A DNA stretch of 64,000 bases, taken from Patescibacteria group bacterium (GTDB taxonomy: Bacteria > Patescibacteriota > Patescibacteriia > UBA2591 > JAQUPP01). Below, piece by piece: positions 1-43,915 of this stretch (its first letter is position 1; every line of letters begins with the position of its first letter). The position numbers were made by a program, and so were the translations under genes. The stretch covers positions 30,322 through 94,321 of the forward strand of contig JAQUOF010000001.1 of assembly GCA_028717225.1 (NCBI GenBank), written 5' to 3'. Under the pieces are notes generated by a model that saw only the letters and a program-made list of their open reading frames with translations, did not search any database and had not been told where the DNA came from.

Positions 1-2050
1 CCTTATCAATAGATTCTGTGCCGATATCCAAATATAGTTTATTAATTTCCGATTCTTTCCAGGCCTTGATTCCTTCTGATTTTTTAACCAAAGATTCTTC
101 ACCTAATAAATCTATTTTTTCTTTTATTTTTTGGACGGCTTGTTCAGAACTGCCCCAACGTCGAAAATCCTGAAGGGTAACGCCCTGTAATTCTTCAATT
201 GGACCGGAAACGCGTGGAGTAACTTTAATTTCTTCCATTTTAGACATTGCCGGTTCGCGAGGCGGCCGATGAATAAAAATTTCCGCCTGAGGTTGAGGTT
301 TAATTTCTTTCTTGATTTCTTCAATTTTAGGTTCTTTAATAATTGGTTTAGGTTCTTCTTTGGGCAATTCTTTAATCGGCAGCTTAAATTTATCTTCCGC
401 GTCTTCGTCAAGAACAAAAAGTGAATCTTCTGCCGGCAATTGATCAAGTTCTTTTAAAACACCTGTAATTTCTTCCGGACCGGAAATTTCTTCTTTCTTT
501 AAAATTTCAACGGGTAAATCTGTTTTGGGTTTTTCAACAACCGCAGTAAATAAATTTGGCGCTGTTTTCTTATCCTCCGCAGCCTTAATAAAAGAGGGTT
601 CTTCAATTTTCTTTTCAAAAACAGGCGGAAGAACCGGTTTAATTTCCGGTATAACAGGTTGATTTTCTTTAATCTGTATGTCACCTTGTCCGCGTAAGTC
701 TGTGTTCTTGTCCGCGTAAGTCTGTGTCATGGGCTGAGGTTTTTTAATAATCGGTGCCGGTTGTTCTAAAACCGGTGTTTTCAATGTTTCTTGTTCAAAT
801 TTTTCTTTTAATAATTTCTCTTTTGTTTCTTCAGGTTGAGGAAGAAATTTTTCTTCTTCCATTTTAGGCAAAGAAGAAACCGGTTTTATTTCAGGAACTG
901 TTTTTTCCGCCGGTTTTTCCATTCGGGTAAATTTTTGAATTGTTTCTTCCGGCTGTTTTAATCCTTCAGCCAATTCAATTTGAGGAATATTGCCCATTGG
1001 TTCAACTTTAATCATTGGTTTTTCTTGTTTTAATATATCCATCACTTTATCAACTGTTGTTTCGTCCAATTCCACGCCGCCGATTTTTTGCGGCCTTTTT
1101 AAAACAATTCTTGTTTCAATTTCTCCGCGCACTTCTCTTAAATAAGAAAAGACGACATTTTTAAAACGTTTTTCCAATATTTCATCGGGAAAAGTCAAGC
1201 CAACCTTGGTAATCGCAGTGTCCACGGCTTGATTAATATTAATTGGCGGTGCCATAACTTGTTGTTTTTTTAATTTTTCAATTTCGTCGTCAAAACTTTT
1301 TAAAGGAGATATTTCCTCACTGCTTGAATTGGCTGTTTTGTTAATTTTGCGAGGCATTATGTCAACTAAACGATTATTTTGGATTATCTGAAGCGTGCCT
1401 TTGTCGGTAACGAAAGTTAAATCATCCGCAAAAGCTTGGGGAGACTTGGAATCAATTTTAAAATATTCATAAATGCCGAATAATTTTTCCAAAACCGCCC
1501 TATTTTGAGGGGATAACCCGGAAAGATGCTTCATAAAATATTCCGCTTGTTTTATATTACTAATCTCTTCCGCGCCCAAAATTTGATGATAATCATTAAG
1601 ATAATTGGCGATGGTTTTTCTGTTTTTCTCTTCCATCTCTTCGGGAAATAATATTTGATTGTTAGAATTTAAAGCATTCATCAATTCTTTTTTAATTGAA
1701 TCCCGACCCCAAGGATTGAAAGAAATAAGAGACGATTTTAATTGAGATAAAACCGGCAAATCGGAAATTTTCAAAGCTGCGGCTAAATTATATTGCAAAA
1801 AATCGGCGATTTCCTGAACATTTAATCTCTGCATGGCGACGCATTTTAATCCGCTGATTAAATCTTTATATTCTTCATTTAAATCAGGATCCAACTGGCT
1901 TCGGGATAAAGCTTTTTCCAAAGCTCCGGCCAATTGTTTGGCTTTTTTATTTTCTAAATAAAAAATAATCTCTTGGACTTCTTTTTGAAGTTCTTCCTTG
2001 AATTCCGGATTATTTAATTGTTCTGAATTAATTTGATCCTGATTAATCAT
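1..2050 (-). CDS. Hypothetical protein, partial (C-terminus beyond window start); Pro/Glu/Lys-rich central and C-terminal region
   Basis: ATG at 2048-2050 with no in-frame stop down to position 2; 12 bp downstream of the 908-aa membrane protein gene on the same strand; no recognisable catalytic motif; the tracked overlapping ORFs 124..447 and 499..684 are in other frames. Confidence 0.5.
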   Translation of the reverse strand, partial: MINQDQINSEQLNNPEFKEELQKEVQEIIFYLENKKAKQLAGALEKALSRSQLDPDLNEEYKDLISGLKCVAMQRLNVQEIADFLQYNLAAALKISDLPVLSQLKSSLISFNPWGRDSIKKELMNALNSNNQILFPEEMEEKNRKTIANYLNDYHQILGAEEISNIKQAEYFMKHLSGLSPQNRAVLEKLFGIYEYFKIDSKSPQAFADDLTFVTDKGTLQIIQNNRLVDIMPRKINKTANSSSEEISPLKSFDDEIEKLKKQQVMAPPININQAVDTAITKVGLTFPDEILEKRFKNVVFSYLREVRGEIETRIVLKRPQKIGGVELDETTVDKVMDILKQEKPMIKVEPMGNIPQIELAEGLKQPEETIQKFTRMEKPAEKTVPEIKPVSSLPKMEEEKFLPQPEETKEKLLKEKFEQETLKTPVLEQPAPIIKKPQPMTQTYADKNTDLRGQGDIQIKENQPVIPEIKPVLPPVFEKKIEEPSFIKAAEDKKTAPNLFTAVVEKPKTDLPVEILKKEEISGPEEITGVLKELDQLPAEDSLFVLDEDAEDKFKLPIKELPKEEPKPIIKEPKIEEIKKEIKPQPQAEIFIHRPPREPAMSKMEEIKVTPRVSGPIEELQGVTLQDFRRWGSSEQAVQKIKEKIDLLGEESLVKKSEGIKAWKESEINKLYLDIGTESIDK
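685..728. repeat. Perfect tandem duplication of a 22-bp unit (CTTGTCCGCGTAAGTCTGTGTY) inside the partial CDS
   Basis: Units 685-706 and 707-728 differ only at the last base; locally GC-rich; the two copies are read in different frames (TQTYADK vs TDLRGQG). Confidence 0.7.
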
Positions 2051-2062
2051 GGGTTAAAATGT

Positions 2063-4789
2063 TTAAGGTTTTGGTCTTTTAATTAATCCTGCTTGTATTT
2101 TAAGCTCATCAATAAATTCCTTAATCAATTTTGCCTGATCTTTAGGTACACCCGGTATACCATTTTCTATTTCTTTAGTATAAGCTGCCATTTGTTGTAA
2201 TACACTTTCAGTGGTTAATCTTTTCAGAGTATCGGGTCTGATTCTCTGAATTTGTCTTATATCAAGTTCCTGAACAGTATCTAAATATTTTTTTCCGGCA
2301 TTATGTAAAGAGGCGCCCTTACCAAATTGATCTTCGGTTATTAAAGTATCAGCATGTAAACCCCTCATCATATTTTGCGGCTCTACCTGATTCATTTTTG
2401 CGACAGTTACTCTTGCCCATTGATCATCTATGTCTAAATTGCCCTTTGCTAATTCTTCTTTGTTTACTCCTCCAATTTTAGCCATACCTGTTACCGAATC
2501 AATTGTAGCCATACCGGCCATTTGATGCTGGCCTGCCATAGCGCCAATAGAGCCCACTCTTGATATTGCTCGGCTGGTTTCCATATCGCCAAGGCGAGCC
2601 ACGTCTTTAAATATATGTTCAAAAAAATCCTTAACAGCTACCGGATTAACAGGATTTTTTTCAAAAGACGCAACAGCGTTTTCTCCGCCATTTGATCCAT
2701 ATTCCGAAGTGCCATATTTTTTAGCCAATATCTTTTTTGTTTCCGCCTGAATATAAGGATCTAACATTAAAGTATTTGTGCCGTTAACCTTGGCTAACAT
2801 TTCTATTGCCGCAATTAATTTATCTTCATCTTTGGTTACTAAAGCTTTTTTAACTTCTTCAACCAATAATGTTTCTTCGCCGCCGGTTGTCAACTGCAAT
2901 TCTTTTTGTTTTTCCGCCTGTCTCTGTCTGGCTCCATATTCAGCCAAAGGCGTTCTTTCTTGTTCTCTGCCCAAAGATCCATAAGTATTATATCTTAAGG
3001 CAGAAATTTTTTGAGCATATTCATTACTTTCTTTTAAAAGGTCAAGTTGAGTTTTTTCTCTATCACCCAATTCTTGTTTTTTTGTGTCTATTTCTTTATT
3101 TTCTTCCGGTTCTTTATTTTGCATCCAATGTGCTAAATCCCGTCGCCCCGTGGATGTGTTAAAATCATACCTCTCGCCAGTCTCTCGTTGGCACCAATTA
3201 GCCATGGCTTCTAACTCAATTTTATCATCAGCTGTATTAGTACCATCCATAAGTTTACCAGAGAGTTCGTTTCTTCTTGCTAATGCATTTGTTAAATTCT
3301 CTATTACTATTTTTAAATTTTTCATTTCGTTATTATTTTTTGACATTTCATCATCTGCTGTTTTTTTCTTATCCGCTAATTCTTTTTGTTTACCCTTCGA
3401 TCCTGTTAATAAGTCTCCCACTTTTTTACCCCAATGGCCCGGATCCATCGCCTTGTCAATAGCTGTACCAAGCGGTCTTGATGCAAGCTCAATACTATCT
3501 TTTTCTCTCCTAATACTTTCTGCTTGACGCAATTTCCATGCCGCCACACCGGATTGAACACTTATACCCTCCCATTGTTTAGCACCAAACATTCGGCCAA
3601 CGCCTCTTGTGGTGTTTAATAATCCTTGATCAAGTTTCCTTAATCCTAATTTGCTCGCTCCGGAAGCAAAATTTTGCATTCCTTTCACTCCCTGACCAGC
3701 CAATTGCGAGCCGGCCACGCCGAGCTGTTGAGCAACCATTAAAGAGCCAACCAACATGGCAATGCCGATTATAAAATTCAAAACATATTGCGGTTGGCCG
3801 GTTTCAGAAATAGACGCCGCCAAATTTCCTTCGCCGGATGCTCCTTTTAATGCATCTTGGCCAATAGCAGTAGCTCTTTCTTCGGTAACCATTGTTTTAT
3901 ATATCGTGCCTCCCTGGTCTTGAACAACCGCCAAAGAAAGCCAAAGCATAAAAGCCATAGCCGGTCCGACGATCAATTCATTGGAAAATTTCTTCCACCA
4001 TTGATCAGCATGGCCCTTGCCCATTGGAAAAAGAGGAGCCACAAAAATCAAGGGCGAGAGAAGAATTAAAAACCAAAGCGTCACAATTCTCATTACTAAA
4101 ATTATTGTAATAATACCAATCACGAAAAGCGCCACTCCAACCATAATCAATCCCAGAATCAAAGCTCCAAAAACCTCAAAACCATTAATATCCGCACCGG
4201 TAATTGAATCTCTAAAAGACAATATTTTACTTAGTCCCAACATTTCAGCAAAATTTCCTTCTGCCGCCGTTTTGAAAGCATTAACAAAAGTCAGCATTAT
4301 AATTTGAGAAATATCAATCAAAAATCCGCAAATAAATTTTGAAAAGTTAACCAAAACCGCCGCCATTACCAATTTCCCTAAAAGTTTTTTGTAAGAATAA
4401 TTTTCAATTTTTAAAACCGTGCAAAAAGCGATTATTAAAAGAGCCAGGATAAAAGACATATTGCAGATGTCTCGGATAATAATCCATCCCTTAGAAACCG
4501 CCGGTGAATTTATAAAATCATTATATTGGGCAACCCAGACCAAAAGACGGATAATAACGATTAAAAGTTTCGCCAATACACTGATAAAGAAAAGAATCGG
4601 CCAGCTTAAAATTTGTAAAACCCCTGATCTTATATCTGACCCCGCTGATGACGCAGACATTGTTGCATCAACTTGTCCAACTTGCGCATTAACCTGATAA
4701 AAAGCGCAGAAAGACATAACTAAAACCAGCCCCAATAAAATGGGGATGATAATTTTCTTTTTTGTTGATATGCGGCGTAAAAAACGCAT
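2063..4789 (-). CDS. Large polytopic membrane protein, VirB6/TrbL-like (putative), with long hydrophilic C-terminal tail
   Basis: 908 aa; N-terminal signal-like segment, then about 6-8 hydrophobic helices in the first ~300 aa, then a ~600-aa charged coiled-coil-like tail; architecture resembles TrbL/VirB6 proteins with C-terminal extensions; assignment made by eye. Confidence 0.45.
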   Translation of the reverse strand: MRFLRRISTKKKIIIPILLGLVLVMSFCAFYQVNAQVGQVDATMSASSAGSDIRSGVLQILSWPILFFISVLAKLLIVIIRLLVWVAQYNDFINSPAVSKGWIIIRDICNMSFILALLIIAFCTVLKIENYSYKKLLGKLVMAAVLVNFSKFICGFLIDISQIIMLTFVNAFKTAAEGNFAEMLGLSKILSFRDSITGADINGFEVFGALILGLIMVGVALFVIGIITIILVMRIVTLWFLILLSPLIFVAPLFPMGKGHADQWWKKFSNELIVGPAMAFMLWLSLAVVQDQGGTIYKTMVTEERATAIGQDALKGASGEGNLAASISETGQPQYVLNFIIGIAMLVGSLMVAQQLGVAGSQLAGQGVKGMQNFASGASKLGLRKLDQGLLNTTRGVGRMFGAKQWEGISVQSGVAAWKLRQAESIRREKDSIELASRPLGTAIDKAMDPGHWGKKVGDLLTGSKGKQKELADKKKTADDEMSKNNNEMKNLKIVIENLTNALARRNELSGKLMDGTNTADDKIELEAMANWCQRETGERYDFNTSTGRRDLAHWMQNKEPEENKEIDTKKQELGDREKTQLDLLKESNEYAQKISALRYNTYGSLGREQERTPLAEYGARQRQAEKQKELQLTTGGEETLLVEEVKKALVTKDEDKLIAAIEMLAKVNGTNTLMLDPYIQAETKKILAKKYGTSEYGSNGGENAVASFEKNPVNPVAVKDFFEHIFKDVARLGDMETSRAISRVGSIGAMAGQHQMAGMATIDSVTGMAKIGGVNKEELAKGNLDIDDQWARVTVAKMNQVEPQNMMRGLHADTLITEDQFGKGASLHNAGKKYLDTVQELDIRQIQRIRPDTLKRLTTESVLQQMAAYTKEIENGIPGVPKDQAKLIKEFIDELKIQAGLIKRPKP

Positions 4790-4907
4790 AAAAATCAGCT
4801 TGTTAGAAATTAGCTTGTTAGCTTTTTAGGGTTTCCGGAGGTCTGACCTCCAACGAATTTTGCTTACCAACTTAGTTAGCTTATTTGCTTACCAGCTTAT
4901 TTGGTCT

Positions 4908-4945
4908 TGACAAAAGGCGAAAAATGTGATAAAGTATTATATAGT
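4908..4945 (+). promoter_or_regulatory. Sigma70-like promoter (TTGACA -35; extended TGnGATAAAGT -10 region) for the secreted CTD protein
   Basis: TTGACA at 4908-4913, roughly 17-bp spacer, A/T-rich -10; followed by strong SD AGGGGGAAAG before the ATG at 4979. Confidence 0.4.
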
Positions 4946-4978
4946 TGAACAATAACGTTTAACTCAATAGGGGGAAAG

Positions 4979-5866
4979 ATGAAAAGCTCTTTAAAAATTT
5001 TTTTAGTTATAGTTTCAATAGTATTTTCCAGTTCGATTTTTGGACAAACAGTTTGCGGTTGGGTTCCGATAGATTCAAGTAACGCATCTGAAGCACTGAA
5101 AAACAAATTGTCATATTATACGGGAAATTTTCGAGATCGTGGATTTACAAGAATCTCGGATGATCACAGCCCATGGAATAACAGTCAAAGTTCTATTGAA
5201 TTTGCCGACACCTCTACTTCCGGACATGGGTCAATGCTTTTTTCAAAAGCATTTAATCTGAACGTTGGCGATTCCTTCCGACTTTATCTTGACATAAAAG
5301 GTTCCCCTGCAGATTCTGTTTATATTGAATTATTTATGGTCTCAAATGGAAAATTCTATGAAGGTGGTTGTGGCTCCCATTTTTTGTCTACTGAGTGGAA
5401 ACAAGGGGTTGATTTTGGAACCTTTTTACCATCGGGGAATGGACCACGCGCAACAAGAATTGATACTGTAACCTTGGCTATCGTGTATAATTCTGATAAT
5501 CCTCAATTTCCTTTTAACGGCAAGTTTGATAATTTTACTTATAAAACTTGGAATAATGGAAATGAGGTGGTTTTGGACTCAATGGGAGAAAACCAAGCGG
5601 TGGAAGAGGAACATGGGACATTGAACATTGAACATGGAATAAAAGTTTTTCCAAATCCATTTTGCCAATCTTTACTGATTACCGGAGCATCGGATAAATC
5701 AGACATTAAAGTGTATGACAAAACCGGTAAACTGGTAAAATCAATTAATGATTTTACTTGGGATGGACGAGATGAAAAAGGAAATAAGTGTTCAAATGGA
5801 ATGTACTTCTTAAAGGTTAAGACAGAAAATAGAACTATAACTGAGAAAGTTTTGTTAATAAGATGA
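4979..5866 (+). CDS. Secreted protein with C-terminal T9SS-type sorting-domain-like (Por_Secre_tail / FlgD-Ig-like) module
   Basis: N-terminal signal peptide MKSSLKIFLVIVSIVFSSSIFGQ; C-terminal ~75 aa (VFPNPF...IKVYDKTGKLV...FTWDGRDEKGNKCSNGMYFLKVKTENRTITEKVLLIR) matches the classic T9SS CTD pattern. Confidence 0.6.
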   Translation: MKSSLKIFLVIVSIVFSSSIFGQTVCGWVPIDSSNASEALKNKLSYYTGNFRDRGFTRISDDHSPWNNSQSSIEFADTSTSGHGSMLFSKAFNLNVGDSFRLYLDIKGSPADSVYIELFMVSNGKFYEGGCGSHFLSTEWKQGVDFGTFLPSGNGPRATRIDTVTLAIVYNSDNPQFPFNGKFDNFTYKTWNNGNEVVLDSMGENQAVEEEHGTLNIEHGIKVFPNPFCQSLLITGASDKSDIKVYDKTGKLVKSINDFTWDGRDEKGNKCSNGMYFLKVKTENRTITEKVLLIR

Positions 5867-5882
5867 AAATAAGTTTCATCAC

Positions 5883-5912
5883 GGGGCAGGCCTAAAACCT
5901 GCCCTTTTTTTA
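5883..5912. terminator. Bidirectional intrinsic terminator between convergent genes
   Basis: GGGCAGG-loop-CCTGCCC hairpin followed by a T-run; sits between the stop at 5866 (+) and the stop at 5915 (-). Confidence 0.7.
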
Positions 5913-5914
5913 TT

Positions 5915-8900
5915 TTAAGGTATAATTTTAATCAATCCTTGAAATGAAACATTTGTTGTTTTTCCCCAATTGTCCGTAATTGAAACCTTTGGCTGGAAAC
6001 AACAAGCATTGGAACACCCGAATTTATTCCAACCCGAACCACCGGAGGCGCAAGAATAAATATGATTAAATTGAAAATAATTATTTGTACAAGCATTAGG
6101 AGTATCGCCAAAATTATCGCAAGTTAGATTATCAGCGCAACAAACCGGTTTATGATTTTTGGCCATTACCAAATATGGATTTGGCTGAATAACATCGCCC
6201 CAGTCAATGGTAATGTTGCGAATCGGCATTTGGTCTTTATCCGCCCAGGCATAAAATTTCAAAACCGCCAAATAAGATTGGGAACGAGTAATATCTTCAT
6301 TGTCAACATCGCCAATGGTTATTTTATCTAAATTACCGTTCTGACATTGACCTTTTTCAGTACAATTAACAGAAACAATTTGTGGACTTTTAATATCAGA
6401 TGGACTATTTAAACTTGTATTAGTTCGTTGATATGTATAATCTAAACCGGGATGTATTTCACAAATATCTCCCACATTTTTTCCAACACATGAACCCGTA
6501 GTGGAACAGGTAAGATTACCGCAAGTGTAATAAGTGGCCGGTTCTGAACAATCTTGACTGCTTAATTGGCAAGTATTATCCTTTTTTGGACCATCTTCAC
6601 AAATTCCATTTCCACATGTTCCTGCCATAAAACAATCATCGTCGGTTTTACACGAATGATTAGCCCCTGAACATATCCCAATACAATCATGAGAAATAAC
6701 AGATGTTTTCTCTCCACAATTTTCATCAGTTAAACAATTATTGTTTTGATTTAGACCGTCCTGACATTTCCTTTGACAAACACCGGGAAAAATATAATTA
6801 TAAATTGAATAAGATGTAGTAAAAAGTTTTTGTAAAGGGGTTATGGATGAATATATAGAAGATGAATCAACCATATTATCTCCGCAACCGCTGGCAGAAG
6901 TGATATAAGCTGATTGGTCCCAACTACCAAGTGCTCCCCAGGGCTGACATTGGGAATCAGTTTTATTATTTGCATCCATGGTAGTATATATTTTACTGTC
7001 TATTGGATCATTATAATAATTTTTAATATTATTTACTCTATTAGTAAAAGCTTTGGTCATATTTTGATCCTCCTCGTTAGCTATTTTTACAACTTGACCG
7101 CAACCTGTATTAAAATTTATAGTAATCCCTGCGACTCCAAATCCACCGTCATCAGCACTTCCATCACAGCTAGAAAGATTAAAACCAGTTAATTTATTAC
7201 TCTCGTCAAATAGAACCGTAATATCTACATAATCAGCGCCTTTTTTCCAGCTTGCTTTCCAATTAGGATTATTTGCCTTAATTGTTGTATTTGCATCCCA
7301 GCCGCTTCTATGCCCCAAACCACACCAGTCACTATCGCTTTTTAAATTAAAATCTATACTTGCAATATCATTTTTATAATAATTAAAAGTTTCTTCATAT
7401 GTCCATGTATCCGTACACGAAGGACAAGTCGGATTATCTCCATCATTTATATCATAACACTTGTACGCCAACCCTTCTCCCCACTGAGCACAGGAACCGC
7501 TAGCTGTTACGTCCTTGGCATTTGTAATTGGATTTGATTTTGCAGAAGGGATAATTTTTTTAGTACAATACCATTCTCTGTCATTGGCGGCTTGGTAACC
7601 GGCAGAAAGAAATTGATTATAAATATCCGGGTCGCCGGTTGGTTGTCCAGGCCACCAAGTAATACAAGCATTCACATCTGTTGGTTTTGACGGATCCGGT
7701 TCCAAACAAAAACCTCGCAAACCAATCGCGTTTGTTTTTTTAGTTAGAAGCGTCCAAGTATTCCCCGTAGCGGCGCTAGATTTGCCTTCACAACTTTCTT
7801 TGGTTGTATCTGAAGTTTCGCTGCCATTACTACCAATACAAATACTGTCTCCAGCTAAACTTTCTGAATTATAATATTTTGTCGTTCCGCCATAAACAGC
7901 CTTAGTATAGCTGCATTGGCAATCTTTTTGGTCGCCGGCCCCATTAGTAGCATCACTGCAAACATTAACATCAGAATAATAAGGCGCGCCTCCATTGGCA
8001 TTATTACCTTTGAATGGAGAATCTTTTTCCGGATAAGCTCGGCAGGTTTTGGCAATTGTAAGTTTTGCTAAATCAGTTGAACTTATAATGCTATCTGGTT
8101 GTATCGATGATTTAAGTTTGATTCCGTTAACTCCATAAACATCTCCCAGAGCATTAACATAACTTAATCTATAACCCAAATTATTATTTGCATCTACATA
8201 TTCCTTGGCTGTTAATCTTTCAATCGGATACATATTATAAATTGAGTGTCCGGCATAATCCATTCCGCTCCAAGAAACATCTCGGTCTTGATATATATTT
8301 TCAGTTAAAACCGCCGGGTTCTGTTCCCAAATTAAATGTCCGCATTGATTTGTGTTTCCGCTGCCGATTAATTTATCGCAACGTCCAACTGCTTCGCAAA
8401 TATCTTTATAAGAACCGCTGTTTGTATCCCATTCGGAACGCGAGCTGGTGCAAGTAAGCCATTCGCCGCAAGTTCTATCTTGTCGCACTTTGAGAATTAT
8501 ATTCGCGTCATTTGTGGTCTGGCCGTTTGGTAAACAATATTTTGTGTAATCTTCACTACCTTCTTTTGCGCAATTAACCGGCGAAACTAATTCATATTTT
8601 GGATTAGTCGCTTCTGATTTTTTATAAGTGGCAAAAGTATTATAAGTAGCCGAACCCTGGCTGTTATCTAATAAAAGAATACAGCCTTGTTTTTGTGAAA
8701 CATTTCCTTGGCAAGAAGATTGATCTAATTTTCCGTCATCAAGATAATAATATGGTTGAGGCGTGAATTCAATAATTTGTAAATTATCTACATTAACTTT
8801 ATCATTATTGCCTTGCGTATCATCCGCAATAACAAAAATTCTTAAATTTGTAACATTGGAATCTACTTTTTCATATCGCCAGGCCGAGAACCATTCATTT

Positions 8901-11900
8901 TTAGTATGACTATTATTAAATTGATAATTACCATTTATAGTGGTATGGCAATGAGCAATATCAGAATTTCCGCTTTCTCCGCATTTTCCATTTTCATTGG
9001 CTGTTAAGGCCTGAAAATGAAGTTGCCAGCTCCCTTTTAAAGTTCCGGGAATTTTTATATTTCCAAAAAGATAAAAATATCTTGGATATGGTTTTGGATC
9101 AATTTTAATATCTTGACTAACTAAACCAACCCAGTCGCTTCCGTTCGCGCTAATTTGCAGACCCTTCTTGCCGTCAACATAATCATCAATAGGATTTAAT
9201 ATAACGCCGTTGCATGTTTCCTGATAACCTTGACCGGGAGGACAATCATTTAACCAATAAGTTTTACCTTCTTCAAAACTTCCATTAGTAACCATATTGG
9301 TTAAAGTTCCCACGCTTTCGGTAAATTGCGTGCAACCGGTTTGATTCTGCGGACATAAACCGGCTTTTTCATAGCCAGTTTCAGTGCTTGTTTTAATTCC
9401 ATAAATGCCGTTAAGAAGATATGGAGTTTTATTAGTATTGTAATAACAGGGCTGATCGGTTCCTTTGGTGAACCAACCGGTTATATTGTCCCCGCCTGAC
9501 AAACTCACTTTTTCGCGATATTCGCAAAGATTTTCGCCCGGGTCTTTGAAATAAACCGAGCTGCCCGAACCGCTGATATTGTATTCTTCGCAGCCGGTAT
9601 TCGCGCTGTCGCAAAGAATCTTGGTGGAATAATTATCCGGATTATTTTTTAAATATAAATCAGACCAACCGGTTACCGTGTCTGTAGCAGAAAGAGTCGG
9701 CAAACCAAATCTTTGACAGCCCTTGTTTGTTTCTTGGCAAGATTTTTTGGAATCATTAATCAGATAAATCGGGCTATCGGCCGAGACGGTTATTCCGCTT
9801 TTAAATGTTTCAGCAAACGGAGAAGCAGAATTTTGAGTGTCAATTAAAGCTTCGCAACCGACTGATTTTTCGTTACAAAGACGGGCAAATGAAGCCAGAT
9901 ATTGAAGTTTATTATTTTGATCTTTATAGGCCTGGCAACCCGGGACGGTGCAATTGAGAGGTGTCATTTTTGTAACCCAAGAATTTTTAATTAAATTCAA
10001 ATCATCTTTGACTTCTTTTAAAATAATATTGTCAATATAATAATTTCGATAAGCAGTAGAGATAATTAATTTTTCATCAGAACCGACTTCTCGATCAAAA
10101 TAAACAGGTCCTAATTTTATTTCTCGCCAATTTTCATCCGGAGATAAAGTTGAGCCGATAAGAAGGGAATCTTTTCCGGCCGCTGAGAAATCAGCCCTCC
10201 AAGTTCCCCTGCCTTTAGCCCAAAAAGAAATAATATAGGATTTACCTTGGGTTACCAAACCAGAAGCCGCATATTCAATCGCTTTTACTTCAGAAATAAT
10301 TTCCATTGAATAACCATCTTTATTCACTGACTCATTAGAAGGTCTTCCGCCAATCCAACCTTGATTTCCATCTTCAAAATCACTTTTTAAAACTTGTTTA
10401 ATATTATTGGCCGCGCTGCCTTTGTATTCTCGGCAGCCGACATTGGCTTTGTTGCAAGAAATGCTTTCATTTGGAATAGCTTGATAAATACAATTTCCAT
10501 TTTCCCATGTTCCACGGCTGGCCGTACATTTGTCTGCGGTAAAATTAACCGAAGGAGTTTTCCTTAAAGAAGAACAACTATCAGAACAAGTAATTGTATT
10601 TTCATAAATACGATAACTTACTTTTCCATCTGCGTCATAGAATTCTTTGCAATGAGGATCTGTTAAATCTTCCGGTCCGTTACAATTAGCTCCTTCTAAA
10701 GCAGAATTCACTTTTTCTGGACCATCATCTTCTGATTTTAAATAATATTTTTTTAATTGATAACCATTTGTGTCTGAACCAACCCAAGTGTAATAATAAC
10801 CGCAAGCATCGCTTGGTTTTTGGCATTTTCTAATATAAGAATAATATTGTATGCCTTCGCCGCCTTTTACCACTTCATCCAAATTGGTGAATTCTTCGCA
10901 GCCAGGTGCGGAACAAGAAGTAGCCAAAGAAGGAATCAGCAGCACATCAGGCTGTTCAGTTTCAAAATTAGTCTTCATTTCTTTAAAATAATTCGCTCCA
11001 ACGCATTTTTCCGAGCAGCGATTTTTTTCAGAAACAATTCCCGGTATGATCGGATCATTATTGATCGGGGTGTATAATCCGCAACCGACATCTGCTGATG
11101 AACATTTTTTGGCAAAATTATCGCATTCCGGATTATCAGGATTAGTATTACAACCCATCCAAATTGGCGCGGTTTTTAAATAAATTTTATTGTTTGAACC
11201 GTAATCTTTATAAGGTGAAGGAGTTTTTCCAATTTCAAATTGAGTATTATCAAGCAATATTTCTCCGGAATAATCAGTGGTAATTAAATAAATTCTGGTT
11301 ACTTTGGCTTGACCGGTGGGGTCAGTATTATGGTAAGTGCAAACAGTTCGTTGCCATTGATTTTTATTAGTAGTAGGCAATGAACAGTCAAAAAGAGGAT
11401 CATGCCATTCACCTTTTCCATCCGTACCTTGCATATAAATTTTAAAACTTCCACTGGTGTAACTGTTTACTTTTGACCAAACACTGGCAGTAACATATTC
11501 ATCCGGTTGAACTATTATATTAACGCCTTGTCCTGCGCCAGATTTGCAGGCATCGCAAGGTGTTTGCGCGCAAGTACATCCCAAACTGACCTTAATAGCT
11601 TTACTGCCGGATAATTTATCAGCATCAATTAATGAATAACCCTTCCAATATGGATCCCATCCGTCAGCTCCATTGTCTTTGAGAATGCCGCTTTCAAAAC
11701 CTCCATTCGGTGCTAAATTTGTGCCTAAATCAAGGGCGGTTCTGATATATTCATGACAACCCTCTGTGCTGGCATCGCATTTTTCAACATTGCGATTAAA
11801 GAAAATAGCATTTTTGGAATTATCAGTCGTAACGTATTTTCCGTCATTATCTTTTTCATATGACACTCCCGGACTTTTGCAAGCCCAAATATCTTTGCCT

Positions 11901-14338
11901 CCGGTTGCCAATCCCTTGCCGTAATCCGCACAATACCATTTACAACCGATATCACTGGCGTTGCAATTGGCAAAATTTAAAGTATCGGCCAAATAAGAAT
12001 AACTTTTATTGTCGCTGGTTCGTTTATAAGTTTGGCAAGTATTAAATTGACCATTGCAAGAATTTCCGCCCGCTCGCCAAATATTTTTTTCTCTGGTGCA
12101 GTAACCCCAAGTATCGCATTTTCCGTTTGCGTCTTCATGAATACAATCTTTCATATCAACGCAAGTTTCTTGGCGTTGGCTGGAACCGGGCAAAGGAATG
12201 GCTGAATAAGCAATGGTTTCGCATTGAAAAGACGGAGCTTTTAAAACCCAATTCGGATCAACCAAATGACAAAAAGGCGAGGCTTTTTGCCAAGTTGATC
12301 CTGTTGCAACCTTCTTGGTTGTATTACAATCTAAATCAGAACTCACTTTATCAAACCCATCAACAATATCTTTTAAAGTAAATTGGGCATCGCCTAATTC
12401 ACCGTCATAAATTTTTTGAGCCGCGATTTCCAAACCTAATGGAAAAACTCTGATCGCGCGCAATTTTTTAATATTAGTCAAACTGTAACGATTTAAATAA
12501 TCAGTGGCTGCATCTTTTTTGCTTCGTCCGCTAATCAGCCAATCCGGATGGATTAAATTTTTATCCATTGCTTGTTTTAAGGTCAGATTTTCTTCAAGCG
12601 CTCTGACTATTCCCGAATCCATCACGCAGTTGCTTGGCAACGCATATTTTGGATCTTGCGGACAAACCGAGTATTCGTCATAAATTGATATTTCTCCGCC
12701 CTTTTTCAAAGAAGCCACGGTTAAATCGGCGAAAAAAGATTCGCCACCGGTGCTTAACGTGGTTACTCCTCCGTTTACGTTTAAAAACGGCTCTGATCTG
12801 GGCGCCCATGGAGCATAATTCCAATTAAAACCTTTTTCAAAAATTTGATTTAAAAGTTTGCTTGTTAGAGTGCTGGTAAATATGCCAATCGCGTCAGCCG
12901 CGGCCACGCCGGTATATTGCATCGGACTGGCTTCGCCTTTTTCCACCACCTGACGAGTTGCTTCGCTTACCAAAGTGGAAGGCGTTTTGGTTAAGCCGGA
13001 AATTTTAGTCGTCACATCATTCATTCTGCCCTGGAGAGATTGAAAATATTTTGAATTGGTTATCGCCGTGGTTTGCTTATTCATTAAGTTAGATTGAAGT
13101 TCTAAGGTAACTCTTAAATCATTGTCTTCCGAAAACATTCTCCCTATATCTTCCAAAGTAGCTTGTTCTTTAGCGGTTATGGCCGTAAAGTTGGTCTTTT
13201 TAATCATGTCTTCTAATGTTGTTGTCCAAACCACCAATTGTTTAACATAGAGATTGGCACGCTGAGTATATGCAAGAGCATTAACATAACCGACATATTG
13301 TCTGTCTTTTTCCTCGCAATCCTTATCCTTTAAATTCGCCGTCAATCCTTTGCATTCAAAGTATGAGCAATCCGTAGGACTGACATTGCCAATCGCCAGA
13401 CACTCCTGATTAGAACAAAAATCTTGCTGCTTTTTAGCCGCGCAAACTGACGTATTTTTTTGCCAATATTTCAAATATGCCAAATCATTTTCATTATCTG
13501 GCGTACCCCAAACTATTTTATTAATTAATTTCTGAAATCCTTCTTGGGTAGGCAGTGTCATTAAAGAATCTTTATTGTCAGTTTGAAGAGCTTCAACCGT
13601 TTTAGAAAATTCATCTTGAACTTCAACGATATTTTGAGCGATATTTTTTAATGCATCTACGCGATTCTTTCCACCTATCCATTCTTTATTTCCCTCAGAC
13701 TTATCCGGCCATTGTTTTAATACCGAATCTGCTTCAAGAATATCTCTAAAACTGGATTTATATCTGCCAACCGGGCCCTCTTTAAAATCTATAGAAAATT
13801 CAATTAAATTTTTCTGCTGCGCTTCGCTTATTCTTTGTTTTATTTTTGAAAAAGAACAATGAGTTTCCTGTTTCCAAACTTTCTTTTGATAAACCGGATC
13901 AAAAGAAATTAAAATATTTAAACGAAGAGTCGGATCAATCGGATCGCACAAACTTTGCGTAAAAAATCCGGTAGCTCTGGCCGCCGAATCAATAAATTCA
14001 CCCAACATATCATCGCCCATTGCGGTCCAATAATCAGGACTGGAAATAAATAACGGGCTTTGACCCTTGCCTCCGCCGGCCACCCATTCGGCAGTTTGCG
14101 TGGCTATTGTACTGGTATAAGAATTAATCGCGTTTCTGTAGGCAACTCCCGCGCCTTCTGCCCAAGCTTTTTTCAAATATTCCCAAACTTTATCCCAAAT
14201 AAATTTGGGCCAATCTTCAACCGGTACTGCCTGAGCTTGTTTTGGATAAAATAAAACCGGAGTCGCTATTGATAAAAACATTACCAATAAAACCGCCCCG
14301 GCCATTACTTTAAATTTAATTTGTTTTTTAAAATCCAT
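5915..14338 (-). CDS. Giant (2807 aa) secreted cysteine-rich surface protein with several CBM4/9-like (NGGFE-type) beta-sandwich modules
   Basis: Signal peptide MDFKKQIKFKVMAGAVLLVMFLSIATPVLFYPKQAQA; several hundred Cys in CxxC / Cx(n)C modules; repeated NGGFESG / NGSFEEG / DFEDGNQGW motifs typical of CBM4/9 domains; one uninterrupted ORF. Confidence 0.8.
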   Translation of the reverse strand: MDFKKQIKFKVMAGAVLLVMFLSIATPVLFYPKQAQAVPVEDWPKFIWDKVWEYLKKAWAEGAGVAYRNAINSYTSTIATQTAEWVAGGGKGQSPLFISSPDYWTAMGDDMLGEFIDSAARATGFFTQSLCDPIDPTLRLNILISFDPVYQKKVWKQETHCSFSKIKQRISEAQQKNLIEFSIDFKEGPVGRYKSSFRDILEADSVLKQWPDKSEGNKEWIGGKNRVDALKNIAQNIVEVQDEFSKTVEALQTDNKDSLMTLPTQEGFQKLINKIVWGTPDNENDLAYLKYWQKNTSVCAAKKQQDFCSNQECLAIGNVSPTDCSYFECKGLTANLKDKDCEEKDRQYVGYVNALAYTQRANLYVKQLVVWTTTLEDMIKKTNFTAITAKEQATLEDIGRMFSEDNDLRVTLELQSNLMNKQTTAITNSKYFQSLQGRMNDVTTKISGLTKTPSTLVSEATRQVVEKGEASPMQYTGVAAADAIGIFTSTLTSKLLNQIFEKGFNWNYAPWAPRSEPFLNVNGGVTTLSTGGESFFADLTVASLKKGGEISIYDEYSVCPQDPKYALPSNCVMDSGIVRALEENLTLKQAMDKNLIHPDWLISGRSKKDAATDYLNRYSLTNIKKLRAIRVFPLGLEIAAQKIYDGELGDAQFTLKDIVDGFDKVSSDLDCNTTKKVATGSTWQKASPFCHLVDPNWVLKAPSFQCETIAYSAIPLPGSSQRQETCVDMKDCIHEDANGKCDTWGYCTREKNIWRAGGNSCNGQFNTCQTYKRTSDNKSYSYLADTLNFANCNASDIGCKWYCADYGKGLATGGKDIWACKSPGVSYEKDNDGKYVTTDNSKNAIFFNRNVEKCDASTEGCHEYIRTALDLGTNLAPNGGFESGILKDNGADGWDPYWKGYSLIDADKLSGSKAIKVSLGCTCAQTPCDACKSGAGQGVNIIVQPDEYVTASVWSKVNSYTSGSFKIYMQGTDGKGEWHDPLFDCSLPTTNKNQWQRTVCTYHNTDPTGQAKVTRIYLITTDYSGEILLDNTQFEIGKTPSPYKDYGSNNKIYLKTAPIWMGCNTNPDNPECDNFAKKCSSADVGCGLYTPINNDPIIPGIVSEKNRCSEKCVGANYFKEMKTNFETEQPDVLLIPSLATSCSAPGCEEFTNLDEVVKGGEGIQYYSYIRKCQKPSDACGYYYTWVGSDTNGYQLKKYYLKSEDDGPEKVNSALEGANCNGPEDLTDPHCKEFYDADGKVSYRIYENTITCSDSCSSLRKTPSVNFTADKCTASRGTWENGNCIYQAIPNESISCNKANVGCREYKGSAANNIKQVLKSDFEDGNQGWIGGRPSNESVNKDGYSMEIISEVKAIEYAASGLVTQGKSYIISFWAKGRGTWRADFSAAGKDSLLIGSTLSPDENWREIKLGPVYFDREVGSDEKLIISTAYRNYYIDNIILKEVKDDLNLIKNSWVTKMTPLNCTVPGCQAYKDQNNKLQYLASFARLCNEKSVGCEALIDTQNSASPFAETFKSGITVSADSPIYLINDSKKSCQETNKGCQRFGLPTLSATDTVTGWSDLYLKNNPDNYSTKILCDSANTGCEEYNISGSGSSVYFKDPGENLCEYREKVSLSGGDNITGWFTKGTDQPCYYNTNKTPYLLNGIYGIKTSTETGYEKAGLCPQNQTGCTQFTESVGTLTNMVTNGSFEEGKTYWLNDCPPGQGYQETCNGVILNPIDDYVDGKKGLQISANGSDWVGLVSQDIKIDPKPYPRYFYLFGNIKIPGTLKGSWQLHFQALTANENGKCGESGNSDIAHCHTTINGNYQFNNSHTKNEWFSAWRYEKVDSNVTNLRIFVIADDTQGNNDKVNVDNLQIIEFTPQPYYYLDDGKLDQSSCQGNVSQKQGCILLLDNSQGSATYNTFATYKKSEATNPKYELVSPVNCAKEGSEDYTKYCLPNGQTTNDANIILKVRQDRTCGEWLTCTSSRSEWDTNSGSYKDICEAVGRCDKLIGSGNTNQCGHLIWEQNPAVLTENIYQDRDVSWSGMDYAGHSIYNMYPIERLTAKEYVDANNNLGYRLSYVNALGDVYGVNGIKLKSSIQPDSIISSTDLAKLTIAKTCRAYPEKDSPFKGNNANGGAPYYSDVNVCSDATNGAGDQKDCQCSYTKAVYGGTTKYYNSESLAGDSICIGSNGSETSDTTKESCEGKSSAATGNTWTLLTKKTNAIGLRGFCLEPDPSKPTDVNACITWWPGQPTGDPDIYNQFLSAGYQAANDREWYCTKKIIPSAKSNPITNAKDVTASGSCAQWGEGLAYKCYDINDGDNPTCPSCTDTWTYEETFNYYKNDIASIDFNLKSDSDWCGLGHRSGWDANTTIKANNPNWKASWKKGADYVDITVLFDESNKLTGFNLSSCDGSADDGGFGVAGITINFNTGCGQVVKIANEEDQNMTKAFTNRVNNIKNYYNDPIDSKIYTTMDANNKTDSQCQPWGALGSWDQSAYITSASGCGDNMVDSSSIYSSITPLQKLFTTSYSIYNYIFPGVCQRKCQDGLNQNNNCLTDENCGEKTSVISHDCIGICSGANHSCKTDDDCFMAGTCGNGICEDGPKKDNTCQLSSQDCSEPATYYTCGNLTCSTTGSCVGKNVGDICEIHPGLDYTYQRTNTSLNSPSDIKSPQIVSVNCTEKGQCQNGNLDKITIGDVDNEDITRSQSYLAVLKFYAWADKDQMPIRNITIDWGDVIQPNPYLVMAKNHKPVCCADNLTCDNFGDTPNACTNNYFQFNHIYSCASGGSGWNKFGCSNACCFQPKVSITDNWGKTTNVSFQGLIKIIP

Positions 14339-14457
14339 ATTTTATTTCTTAATTTTGAATTTTAAATAATTTCTATAATTCAAAATATAAATATCAACAA
14401 CTATTCAATTTTTATTTTCCTAATAAGCTAAAAAGCTACAAGCTAATAAGCTTTTAT

Positions 14458-15174
14458 TTACTGCCCTTGTTGCTGGGCTGATTGCAAAAACATCAATTTT
14501 AAAGTTTCGTCGTCTATTTTATTTAATATTTCCTGATCTGCGCCCTGAGTAATTAAAATTTGGCGCAATTGATTTATATCCAAATCAGAAAAATCGCCCG
14601 AAGTAGTATTCGGCGTTGCTATTGTTTCCAAATCTATTCCTGTTTCTGCCTTAGTTTCATTATATAACTTCTGAAGAGTTTCGCTATCAAGCTTATCCAC
14701 AACATCACGAGCCAGACCGCCTTTATCCACAAGTAAATCACGAATTTTTTGAACAGATTCATTAGTTAAGTTGGGGGCCGGATTTAAGGTGCCGGTACTG
14801 GGGCTGGAAAATGTTTTTTCCAAATTATTTTCACTGCCTGTTGCCAATTTGTTAAGCGGAGTTGAATTTAAATTTAAGGGATCGGAACCGGCGTCCACTT
14901 CTTGCTTGTCAGAATATCCGTCGCTGTCAGAATCAGTCAAATAAGCCGAAGTTCGGTATTTAAATTGTTCGTCAAAATCAGAAAGGCCGTCATGATCCGT
15001 GTCAACAACTTTTAAGCCGGTCAAAACTTCTTCTTGGGTTAATGATTTTGGTTTGGAATAACTAATAAAAGGAGCATAAATTGCCCCTTTTATTTTTAGA
15101 AAACCAAGAGTAACGGCGCCAATGCCGATTAAGATAAAAAAAACTATAATAAAAGTATTTTTATTCTGCGGCAT
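14458..15174 (-). CDS. Membrane-anchored protein with two dockerin-like / EF-hand-like Ca-binding loops and C-terminal helical repeats
   Basis: N-terminal TM helix (FIIVFFILIGIGAVTLGFL); DTDHDGLSDFDE and DSDSDGYSDKQE are 12-residue DxDxDGxxDxxE loops; C-terminal repeats xxKxDxETLxxL; 4 bp downstream of ksgA and directly upstream of the giant gene on the same strand. Confidence 0.6.
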   Translation of the reverse strand: MPQNKNTFIIVFFILIGIGAVTLGFLKIKGAIYAPFISYSKPKSLTQEEVLTGLKVVDTDHDGLSDFDEQFKYRTSAYLTDSDSDGYSDKQEVDAGSDPLNLNSTPLNKLATGSENNLEKTFSSPSTGTLNPAPNLTNESVQKIRDLLVDKGGLARDVVDKLDSETLQKLYNETKAETGIDLETIATPNTTSGDFSDLDINQLRQILITQGADQEILNKIDDETLKLMFLQSAQQQGQ

Positions 15175-15178
15175 GAAA

Positions 15179-16039
15179 TTAATTTTTAATTTTATTAGCT
15201 AACTCTATCCAATTTTCAATTGATAATTCCTGCGCTCTGGATTTTAAAGAAAGATTTGTCTGAGATAAAATATTTTCACTCTCTTCCTTGTTTACTATAC
15301 CACTTTTTACCAAATTATTCAAGAGGTATTTTCGCGGCGAAGAAAAACCCGCCCTGACGATTTGGAAAAATTTTTCTTCATCAATATTATTAGTAATTCG
15401 TATATTTGTACTTGATTCGTAATTCGTAATAGGCACAATTTGTAAAATTGCACTGTCAACTTTTGGTTTTGGCCAAAAATTTTCTTTTGAAATTTTAAAA
15501 ATCTTTTTTACTTTACTGTAAAATTGAACCGAGATCGCCAAAAGATTCATTTTGGGCGGTTTAGCTAGAATGCGCTCTCCGACTTCTTTTTGGAGGATTA
15601 GAGTTATTGATTTTGGTTTTATTTTTTGACTTAAAAATTTTCTTAAAACCGCGCTGGTAATATTAAAAGGCAAATTCGCCACAACCTTGTAATCATTGAA
15701 ACATTTTAACATTATAGCATCACAGCATTTTGAATCTAAAATATCACCGGAAATAATTTCAATATTTTTATAATCCTTTAATCTATTTTTTAAAACTTCA
15801 ACTAATTTCTTGTCAATTTCCACAGCAAAAACTTTTTTTACTTTTTTTGCTATTTCTTGGGTTAAAATTCCAAGTCCGGCACCGATTTCTATCACATAAT
15901 CTGAACTTTCCAAATTAGCCGCGTCTAATAATTTATTTATCGTTTCTTGATTAATTAAAAAATTTTGTCCTCTTCTTCTCAAAGGTTGAATTTGATATTG
16001 AGAACAAATTTCTTGTGTTTCTGTTTTAAGCGACATCAA
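15179..16039 (-). CDS. rsmA: 16S rRNA (adenine1518/1519-N6)-dimethyltransferase RsmA/KsgA
   Basis: RRGQNFLIN and IEIGAGLGILT SAM-binding motifs; start abuts the leuS stop. Confidence 0.9.
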   Translation of the reverse strand: MMSLKTETQEICSQYQIQPLRRRGQNFLINQETINKLLDAANLESSDYVIEIGAGLGILTQEIAKKVKKVFAVEIDKKLVEVLKNRLKDYKNIEIISGDILDSKCCDAIMLKCFNDYKVVANLPFNITSAVLRKFLSQKIKPKSITLILQKEVGERILAKPPKMNLLAISVQFYSKVKKIFKISKENFWPKPKVDSAILQIVPITNYESSTNIRITNNIDEEKFFQIVRAGFSSPRKYLLNNLVKSGIVNKEESENILSQTNLSLKSRAQELSIENWIELANKIKN

Positions 16040-18619: not shown

Positions 18620-18666
18620 AAATTGATATTACTTTTATCATTTAATATTAACATAAACTTATCCTC

Positions 18667-18694
18667 TTGACAAGCGGAAAATTAGTGGTATAAT
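18667..18694 (+). promoter_or_regulatory. Consensus sigma70 promoter for the LysM/CHAP hydrolase gene
   Basis: TTGACA (18667-18672), 16-bp spacer, TATAAT (18689-18694). Confidence 0.6.
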
Positions 18695-18723
18695 AAAAAA
18701 CAACCCTGAATAAGGGCCAAATT

Positions 18724-43645: not shown

Positions 43646-43770
43646 GTCAACCCCCACACCAAACTTAGCGTTTGATTTACGTATCGCAAAAATCAGAAGG
43701 CGAAGCCGCTTCGCTTTTATCCCCTTATAAAAAAAGCCTCGCATTGAGTTGTGGTGTGGGGGTCAACCCC
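43646..43770. mobile_element. MITE-like composite inverted-repeat element (GTCAACCCCCACACC ... GGTGTGGGGGTCAACCCC) carrying an outward promoter; paralog of 61814..61963
   Basis: Terminal inverted repeats CCCCCACACC/GGTGTGGGGG with GTCAACCCC at both ends; internal GC hairpin GCGAAGC-C-GCTTCGC; sits in a divergent intergenic region. Confidence 0.45.
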
Positions 43771-43784
43771 TTTTATTTTTATTC

Positions 43785-43812
43785 TTGACAAAACCGCAAA
43801 ATTTGTTATTCT
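43785..43812 (+). promoter_or_regulatory. Sigma70-like promoter for the PQQ-repeat protein gene
   Basis: TTGACA (43785-43790), 16-bp spacer, TATTCT; lies inside the over-extended tracked ORF, supporting the downstream start. Confidence 0.5.
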
Positions 43813-43842
43813 GGTAAATAGTTATTTAAAAAATTCGCCTGC

Positions 43843-43858: not shown

Positions 43859-43915
43859 TACGGCGTGACAAATCCGCCTAAGCTCAAGAAGCTACGGCGT
43901 AATAAAGGAGGAAGA

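Follow-up and report, generated by a model that had tools for sequence, protein, structure and literature searches.

A giant cysteine-rich secreted protein beside a predicted type IV secretion gene cluster in a Patescibacterial genome

Introduction

What does a Patescibacterial locus encode in which a polytopic membrane protein, a giant cysteine-rich secreted protein, and a small protein with calcium-loop motifs stand next to one another? The question is raised by the first part of a 64,000-nt stretch (referred to below as the window) of contig JAQUOF010000001.1 from a Patescibacteria group bacterium (GenBank assembly GCA_028717225.1, positions 30,322 to 94,321), whose positions 1–16039 a sequence-only reading had described as a surface-apparatus locus. 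We consider it probable (about 0.6) that positions 1–19956 comprise the envelope-side half of a gene cluster for a chromosomally encoded type IV secretion system (T4SS), accompanied by a surface module that would serve it as a host-glycan adhesin. The window organism appears to be related to the Falkow-, Kerfeld-, and Uhrbacteria lineages and is tentatively placed in GTDB class ABY1.

T4SSs of Patescibacteria have been described before. An essential role of the system is documented for Southlakia epibionticum, a Saccharibacterium (Wang et al. 2023, PMC10633639), and MPF-FATA-like T4SSs that have VirB2-like pilins and usually lack a relaxase were found in a phylum-wide survey (Quinonero-Coronel et al. 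2025, PMC12102498); these systems have also been reviewed (PMC12857230). In the survey, ksgA was noted near virB4, comF, recG, and radA were noted near the T4SS in ABY1, and adhesins such as PrgB were not detected (PMC12102498). In Saccharibacteria, surface proteins with lectin or dockerin domains are essential for epibiotic growth.

A VirB6-type protein and the gene order of the T4SS cluster

The gene at 2063–4789 (minus strand) encodes a 908-aa protein with a polytopic helical core (aa ~1–390), in which at least seven hydrophobic segments lie between aa 7 and 353 (the number of transmembrane (TM) segments is ambiguous), and a tail (aa ~390–908). The AlphaFold2 (AF2) model of aa 1–420 is all-helical, with a predicted local distance difference test score (pLDDT) of 78.7 and a predicted template modelling score (pTM) of 0.71, and the top eight Foldseek matches of this model were all chains of TrwI. 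The window protein shows 11–16% sequence identity to TrwI, the VirB6 protein of R388 (PDB 7o3v, 8rt9, and 8rtd), and has no direct Pfam match. Pfam TrbL was matched by 6 of the 34 aligned homologs (best E-value, 8.7e-7), precomputed PF19590/PF04610 matches were present on several homologs, and one homolog carries the JGI name ‘VirB6-like’. The NCBIfam search returned a full-length but weak match (E-value, 0.02) to a Mycoplasma conjugal-transfer membrane protein family, and the profile of the full-length VirB6-like family was uninformative against PDB because its matches were dominated by coiled coils of the tail. Among 339 homologs found by word sharing, those with names are almost all from Patescibacteria, the exceptions being two partial records labelled Omnitrophica or Nanoarchaeota. 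Because the predicted fold, the hidden Markov model (HMM) matches of the homologs, and the synteny with VirB3 and VirB4 genes described below agree, the 908-aa protein is shown to be a predicted VirB6-type membrane channel subunit of a T4SS. The VirB6/TrbL-like architecture proposed in the sequence-only reading is thereby borne out, as is a multi-helix core, here extending over aa ~1–390 rather than 300 aa; the 600-aa tail proposed with it was an overestimate, the tail comprising about 520–550 aa.

The C-terminal ~520 residues form a Lys/Glu-rich coiled coil, which is poorly conserved and, compared with TrwI, lineage-specific. TcpH and ConG are extended VirB6 analogues of Gram-positive conjugation systems. 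PrgH is another such extended analogue (PMC12102498). VirB6-like open reading frames (ORFs) of ~1,730–1,790 aa, twice the usual length, occur in two relatives (L065:9812-14995 and L071:9935-15295; loci of relatives are numbered L001–L088, and homologous proteins P01xx and P03xx), both beginning 22–23 bp past the gene for the giant protein. In many relatives, the VirB6-like gene has an ORF of ~190–240 aa on its own strand directly upstream (e.g. L010:9089-9811, L044:9223-9807, L058:9208-9855, and L076:9228-9848, and about 15 further loci); the window contains no such ORF. No significant Pfam match was found for those of L044, L058, and L076, and the 240-aa ORF of L010, which may be unrelated, showed a weak match to an IS200-type transposase.

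Downstream of the VirB6-type gene and co-oriented with it, the first 683 codons of a Pro/Glu/Lys-rich gene (2–2050, minus strand) were identified, in agreement with the partner of >680 aa noted earlier; the ORF continues past the start of the window, and its homolog in L001 is 743 aa long. The encoded protein (7.5% Pro, 12.9% Glu, and 12.2% Lys) has a conserved C-terminal domain and belongs to the T4SS cluster, where relatives carry one or two copies. It is probably cytoplasmic because a signal peptide and a TM segment are lacking; neither was found in the window protein or its full-length homologs. Its proposed role as part of a surface apparatus was rejected on the same grounds.

Gene order was compared in a sample of one genome per species, scanned with an alignment of VirB6-like proteins. 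The scan gave 80 loci, whose genomes belong to Falkow-, Kerfeld-, Uhr-, and Veblenbacteria and to other Patescibacteria, and these loci were searched with HMMs built from the first ones. Among the species-representative contigs of L009–L088, many bear the title ‘uncultured Gammaproteobacteria bacterium’ and a single one the title ‘Planctomycetota’, although the cluster is typically Patescibacterial; the records, of metagenome-assembled genomes, seem to be mislabelled. L001, L003, L007, and L008 share the order ksgA, TSP3-repeat protein, giant protein, VirB6-like protein, Pro-rich protein, PrgI, TraC-like protein, VirB4, and T4SS_pilin. In the common arrangement of these loci and L002, ksgA is preceded by leuS and, divergently, by a LysM hydrolase gene, a gene for a protein with a characteristic C-terminal domain (CTD) may stand between the giant and VirB6-like genes, and the Pro-rich gene is followed by genes for PrgI/VirB3-like, TraC-like (PF26593), and VirB4 (DUF87/P-loop_TraG) proteins, small membrane proteins, and T4SS_pilin proteins; in L003, a RadA-like gene follows the pilin genes. 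The series of one or two Pro-rich genes, PrgI, TraC-like, and VirB4 follows VirB6 in 44 of the 51 loci with at least 7 kb of downstream sequence, and the remaining seven are incomplete or carry insertions. No relaxase or coupling protein was present among the precomputed Pfam labels of L001, L003, L007, and L008, to which no dedicated search was added.

It is thus shown for the orthologous loci that the predicted VirB6 gene is followed by genes assigned to Pro-rich, PrgI/VirB3-like, TraC/TrsD-like, VirB4, and VirB2-like pilin proteins. Because this downstream order is kept, the window would hold the 5′ half of a T4SS cluster, and the VirB4, VirB3, and pilin genes of the window organism should lie just beyond position 1. 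In the closest relatives, L001 and L002 (58% identity in VirB6 and 81% in the giant protein), the T4SS genes are present. The VirB4 gene is represented by two ORFs (468 and 174 aa) in L001:16744-18680 and by one 645-aa ORF in L002:14236-16173; the difference is probably a frameshift or an assembly error in one assembly of the same locus. In its VirB6, PrgI/VirB3, TrsD/TraC-like, VirB4, and VirB2-like pilin components (as seen in the orthologous loci), the cluster resembles the MPF-FATA-like T4SSs of Patescibacteria, and it shares with them the absence of outer-membrane core genes, the nearby ksgA, and the downstream RadA-like gene of L003.

At the other end of the cluster, a gene at 18724–19956 (plus strand, divergent from leuS) encodes a cell-wall hydrolase with LysM and CHAP domains; in the T4SS cluster, this enzyme is a candidate for the part of a VirB1-like hydrolase. 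The enzyme in this position has LysM and Peptidase_M23 domains in L007 and LysM and CHAP domains in L008.

The giant secreted protein

The gene at 5915–14338 (minus strand) encodes a protein of 2807 aa. It carries a Sec-type signal (predicted cleavage between ..PKQAQA and V), a conserved N-terminal module (aa 1–700 including the signal peptide; 12239–14338), Cys-rich linkers, three modules resembling carbohydrate-binding modules (CBMs), a Cys-rich region that varies, and a C-terminal domain that is conserved; neither a C-terminal TM segment nor any other membrane anchor of its own was found. Of the CBM-like modules, the first (aa 874–1018; 11285–11719) matched CBM_4_9 with 43.7 bits (gathering cutoff, 25.9; E-value, 4.5e-11), the second (aa ~1315–1381; 10196–10396) was marginal, with 22.4 bits against the same cutoff (E-value, 1.7e-4), and the third (aa ~1685–1850; 8789–9286) was recognized by its initial NGSFEEG motif only, has no profile match, and is the most variable segment of the family. 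A signal-peptide-bearing giant with CBM-like modules had been proposed from the sequence, and both features are confirmed; of the repeated modules, one exceeds the Pfam threshold and the other two do not. The ‘hundreds’ of cysteines mentioned in the same place amount to 118 (4.2%); when 26 homologs are compared, 67 of these cysteines recur in at least 70% of them, and they are spread along the whole length of the protein. The linkers contain 11 C-x(2-8)-G-C-x2-[YFL] motifs. Pfam scans of individual segments (the Cys-rich linker, aa 2000–2260, aa 2490–2640, and the C-terminal domain) added nothing except the marginal second CBM, and PDB searches with the single sequence and with a profile of the N-terminal module returned no match.

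An origin of the 8.4-kb ORF as an assembly chimera or other artefact, which would have undone the earlier description, has a negligible probability. The identical 2807-aa protein is encoded in a 124-kb NCBI contig (P0121), an independent record, and there are 25 colinear homologs (1,781–3,749 aa, most of them 2,400–3,700 aa) from many independent assemblies. No tandem repeats were found in the DNA (Tandem Repeats Finder (TRF)) and no internal repeats in the protein (self-BLASTP), and the conserved cysteines extend over its whole length. In L028 and L042, the giant region is broken into two or three ORFs. Because self-BLAST and TRF revealed no internal repeats, the modules are presumably ancient and diverged.

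A phmmer search with aa 1–700 against 1.84 billion representatives yielded 1047 matches at E ≤ 1e-3 and 829 at E ≤ 1e-10 (cluster representatives). Nearly all of the best 150 of these 1047 are proteins of 2.4–3.5 kaa, and the named ones among the matches listed are from Patescibacteria (Parcu-, Kerfeld-, and Jacksonbacteria). The module is marked by the motifs AYRNALN..L.Q.A..TAEW.A.GGKGQKPLF, ISG..KTP, YTG...ADA.G.F.NTL, and DPNWVLK.

Conservation along the protein is mosaic. The scaffold segments are 70–97% identical to the three closest homologs (P0122–P0124), whereas the aligned identity of CBM1 is 0% for two close relatives (P0123 and P0124), CBM3 is 57, 20, and 18% identical to the three homologs, and region 2251–2650 is 21–72% identical to them; the CBM regions are also the least conserved part across the 26 homologs. 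One homolog, P0144, carries Dockerin_1 at aa 1475–1519, and another, the 3984-aa P0343, bears the name of a vWA-domain protein. These cases are consistent with module shuffling, in which accessory modules on a fixed scaffold differ between lineages. Variable modules on a conserved scaffold form a pattern that is typical of host-recognition proteins and may have that meaning here.

CBM_4_9 modules usually accompany glycoside hydrolases. This association, the large regions of the giant protein without an assigned function, and the LysM–CHAP hydrolase encoded nearby would fit an enzyme or toxin that attacks the envelope of the host by degrading its polysaccharide or cell wall, or else a protein that is itself a substrate of the T4SS. 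We regard this explanation as very unlikely: Pfam and NCBIfam scans of the window protein and three diverse homologs revealed no catalytic domain, and the giant protein would not need the T4SS for export because a Sec signal is present. A role of the giant protein as a VirB1-like hydrolase was likewise rejected, no catalytic domain having been found.

The TSP3 calcium-loop anchor

Upstream of the giant gene, a gene at 14458–15174 (minus strand) encodes a signal-anchored protein of 238 aa with one N-terminal hydrophobic helix (TM, aa 8–26). It carries two 12-residue DxDxDGxSDxxE loops 23 residues apart (DTDHDGLSDFDE at aa 58 and DSDSDGYSDKQE at aa 81; aa 58–69 and 81–92, positions 14899–15003), and its C-terminal part contains a duplicated helical motif (..D.VDK.DDETL..LYNE..). 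The protein matched TSP3_bac (PF18884) with 33.7 bits (gathering cutoff, 25; E-value, 3.3e-8). A total of 94 homologs (186–322 aa) have one common architecture, and most of them carry PF18884. The anchor is a TSP3-type repeat protein, in which the loops are putative calcium-binding sites. The TM anchoring and the two loops had been recognized before; of the dockerin, TSP3, or EF-hand character then attributed to the loops, the TSP3 assignment holds, and Dockerin_1 was not matched at E ≤ 1.

In 13 of the 14 loci with room for it, the anchor gene is the immediate upstream neighbour of the giant gene, with a 4-nt overlap in L058 and a distance of 428 nt in L081; in further loci, an anchor is seen but is incomplete at the locus edge. 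In L005, a 3749-aa giant protein with 27% identity is preceded, after a 6-nt gap, by an anchor-like gene, whose product contains a TDTDGD loop and a ..DALTDEELLELYDQA.. motif. Since the adjacency is near-invariant and includes L005, where T4SS genes are not nearby, the view that the anchor and the giant protein are genuine partners is supported, and the TSP3 protein may plausibly hold the giant protein at the cell surface.

The mechanism suggested in the sequence-only reading, in which a dockerin-like anchor displays the giant protein on the surface through calcium-dependent binding to one of its modules that would be cohesin-like, is distinctly unlikely. The tandem DxDxDG-type loops beside a TM helix, the nearly invariant adjacency, and a CBM-bearing extracellular partner without a membrane anchor of its own do recall cohesin–dockerin docking. 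The loops, however, match TSP3_bac rather than Dockerin_1, there are only two of them, and the duplicated C-terminal motif is unique to the anchor; its sole similarity to PDB sequences is weak and EF-hand-like (E-value, 0.07). No cohesin was found by HMM at E ≤ 1 in the giant protein or its segments, nor any other Pfam partner domain, and the giant homolog P0144 itself carries Dockerin_1, i.e. the opposite polarity. The cohesin–dockerin form of docking thus fails when judged by domain membership.

The CTD-tailed protein

Between the VirB6-type and giant genes lies the gene for a 295-aa protein (4979–5866, plus strand) with a signal peptide, a head of ~200 aa, and a C-terminal β-sandwich of the Por_Secre_tail/FlgD_ig type (aa 223–292). 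This domain matched Pfam Por_Secre_tail (39.7 bits against 27; E-value, 6e-10) and TIGR04183 (42 bits against 23), which confirms the secreted CTD protein of the earlier description; the head had no match in a Pfam scan.

A local HMM of the β-sandwich was run over 1.57 Mb comprising the loci and the window. It detected 13 distinct CTD ORFs, 12 of which abut the 3′ end of a giant gene, on either strand, the thirteenth lying at a locus edge; in addition to that of the window, they include L013:4382-5608, L014:5267-6505, L016:5858-7147, L026:4687-5934, L045:7882-9141, L057:7197-8423, L062:6477-7673, L077:6153-7409, and L079:5113-6381. The heads vary, with a BNR/sortilin-like propeller in L045 and L077 and no assignment in the window. 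A 535-aa protein of the PQQ/β-propeller type encoded elsewhere in the window (43751–45358, plus strand) matched the first CTD HMM weakly (E-value, 7e-4) and matched neither Pfam Por_Secre_tail nor the refined CTD HMM.

In the scores of its C-terminal 70 residues, which exceed both thresholds, the 295-aa protein resembles type A cargo of the secretion system of type IX (T9SS); it differs from such cargo in that the host is a monoderm and that the domain is confined, in this lineage, to genes that adjoin the giant gene. A T9SS needs an outer membrane. To our knowledge, monoderm bacteria such as Patescibacteria lack a T9SS. Because Patescibacteria are described as monoderms (PMC12857230) and a T9SS requires an outer membrane, the CTD is unlikely to act here as a signal for T9SS export. 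That it was associated exclusively with the giant gene in the surveyed loci suggests a docking role with the giant protein.

Linkage of the surface module to the T4SS genes

Directly upstream of the predicted VirB6 gene, the comparison shows a surface module that appears separable, consisting of the TSP3 protein, the giant protein, and, in some lineages, the CTD protein. A giant homolog precedes the VirB6 gene on the same strand in 44 of the 55 loci with at least 9 kb of upstream sequence, and this adjacency holds though VirB6 identity drops to about 27–30%. In relatives without the CTD gene, the gap between the two genes is ~20–150 bp. Because the anchor–giant pair of L005 stands alone and 11 of the 55 VirB6 genes have housekeeping neighbours, the anchor–giant(–CTD) genes and the genes from VirB6 through VirB4 to the pilins are, as judged from gene order, two separable modules that are usually juxtaposed.

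The anchor–giant(–CTD) genes might alternatively constitute an autonomous surface adhesin or envelope-layer system, which has no functional relation to the T4SS and, like leuS and ksgA, owes its place beside it only to a gene order that was inherited. This explanation would accommodate the pair of L005, the housekeeping genes found directly upstream of VirB6 in 11 of the 55 genomes, and the fact that leuS and ksgA share the same conserved synteny, and it finds a parallel in Saccharibacteria, where the genes for the essential lectin-type adhesins lie apart from the T4SS cluster. It agrees less well with the persistence of the giant–VirB6 adjacency in 44 of the 55 species-level genomes at such low VirB6 identity, with intergenic gaps that are often <160 bp, and with the surveys, which report no other adhesin candidate in the T4SS cluster. 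We regard autonomy as rather unlikely, though as an explanation to be taken seriously.

Several points weigh against a T4SS cluster with an adhesin of its own. The giant–T4SS linkage is not obligatory: in the 11 genomes, ATP synthase, GroEL, or tRNA-synthetase genes precede VirB6, and the pair of L005 has no T4SS gene within 10 kb. Synteny alone is weak functional evidence because ksgA and leuS are equally syntenic and functionally unrelated. Genes for VirB4, VirB3, or pilins do not occur within the window, their presence being deduced from relatives at 58–81% identity, and the 908-aa protein of the window had no Pfam match at E ≤ 1. The N-terminal module of the giant protein has no Pfam, PDB-sequence, or fold match; its AF2 model (aa 1–700, 26 sequences) was poor (pLDDT, 60; pTM, 0.35), and Foldseek gave only insignificant helical matches. 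A G+C-rich hairpin followed by a T-run (5883–5905) lies between the giant and VirB6 genes and may separate their transcripts. The adhesin role, the localization, and the binding are themselves deduced from sequence and gene order.

Transcriptional layout and neighbouring features

In positions 1–18619, the 295-aa CTD gene is the sole large gene on the plus strand, and the others are transcribed from the minus strand in the order leuS (16040–18619), ksgA (rsmA; 15179–16039, confirmed by Pfam and NCBIfam), the 238-aa anchor gene, the giant gene, the 908-aa gene, and the Pro-rich gene; leuS and ksgA are housekeeping genes, and their synteny with the anchor gene is conserved in relatives. The giant gene is thus co-oriented with the 908-aa gene and not convergent to it, as had been stated. 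The gaps are 0 bp (leuS–ksgA), 4 bp (ksgA–anchor; in agreement with the distance given before), and 119 bp (anchor–giant), and no terminator-like site was found at the leuS/ksgA/anchor junctions. Because the first three genes abut or lie 4 bp apart, their co-transcription is likely, and the surface module probably shares a transcript with leuS–ksgA. The hairpin at 5883–5905, located between the stop codons of the CTD and giant genes, is strong and terminator-like on the plus strand, where it ends the CTD gene; its T-tail is missing on the minus strand.

The divergent intergenic region common to the VirB6 and CTD genes contains a 15-nt direct repeat (AAATCAGCTTGTTAG x2, 4792–4821), directly 5′ of the VirB6-like start codon, and several AAGCTAAC-like repeats with a short hairpin (4790–4900), which may be a regulatory site. 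Rfam and tRNA scans of positions 1–16039 gave no matches. Beyond the LysM–CHAP gene, a 606-aa ORF (19990–21810, plus strand) encodes a Lys/Glu-rich coiled-coil protein with an internal N-terminal repeat (..ASRMKQK[IV].SG.A..Y..A..); its local G+C content is unusually low (0.30), its AT skew is strong (0.32), and no Pfam match was obtained.

Discussion

Given its Sec signal, CBM_4_9 match, conserved Cys pairs, and mosaic conservation, together with the essential lectin-type surface proteins of Saccharibacteria and the absence of a PrgB-like adhesin from the results of the 2025 survey, the giant protein is most likely a Sec-exported host-glycan adhesin serving the T4SS. In the mechanism that we propose, the protein would be exported by Sec, rigidified by roughly 59 disulfides in the repeated Cys-knot linkers, and held at the cell surface by its conserved N- and C-terminal modules, with the TSP3 membrane protein as the most likely tether, possibly in a calcium-dependent manner. 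The exchangeable CBM-like lectin modules would bind glycans on the host bacterium, the CTD-tailed protein would be a plug-in accessory head, and the LysM–CHAP enzyme would play a VirB1-like role at the cell wall. The giant protein would in this way supply the adhesin or host-contact function that surveys of Patescibacterial T4SSs did not find.

The proposed adhesin resembles PrgB-type adhesins and giant lectin or RTX adhesins in being a large, secreted, modular protein with ligand-binding modules encoded beside T4SS genes, and in bearing variable binding modules on a conserved scaffold. Unlike these, it has no sequence or domain homology to them, no LPXTG motif, and no RTX or type I secretion signal; its rigidity would come from disulfide-rich linkers instead of Ig-like repeats, and a distinct protein, the TSP3 membrane protein, would serve as its tether, if there is one. 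A bolder version, which we hold to be unlikely and offer as speculation, is that the TSP3 anchor and the giant and CTD proteins together form an extracellular docking scaffold, i.e. a lineage-specific outer part of the T4SS that substitutes for an adhesin or outer core complex, in which the T9SS-type CTD has been repurposed as a plug-in for lectin or propeller heads and CBM swapping sets the host range.

Published accounts of Patescibacterial T4SSs, in their available parts, make no mention of a giant Cys-rich CBM protein, a TSP3 anchor, or a CTD protein; for the survey (PMC12102498), this holds for the available text and supplements, in which neither giant or cysteine-rich proteins nor CBM, TSP3, or Por_Secre_tail proteins are named. 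An association of giant, TSP3, or CTD proteins with Patescibacterial T4SSs was not found described in literature searches. While the T4SS is already known, the adjoining conserved anchor–giant–CTD module thus appears to be undescribed.

In the one lineage tested, epibiotic growth depends on the Patescibacterial T4SS as an essential system, and the 2025 survey found no adhesin. The module beside VirB6, conserved in many genomes related to Falkow-, Kerfeld-, and Uhrbacteria, provides proteins that are candidates for recognizing the host and for forming the extracellular part of the T4SS. The binding modules of the giant protein are exchanged or divergent between close relatives while the scaffold is conserved, and its N-terminal module, with about 1000 cluster representatives, may serve as a sequence marker for predicting host specificity. 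In the CTD genes, a sorting domain of the T9SS type would have a use that is unexpected in bacteria lacking an outer membrane.

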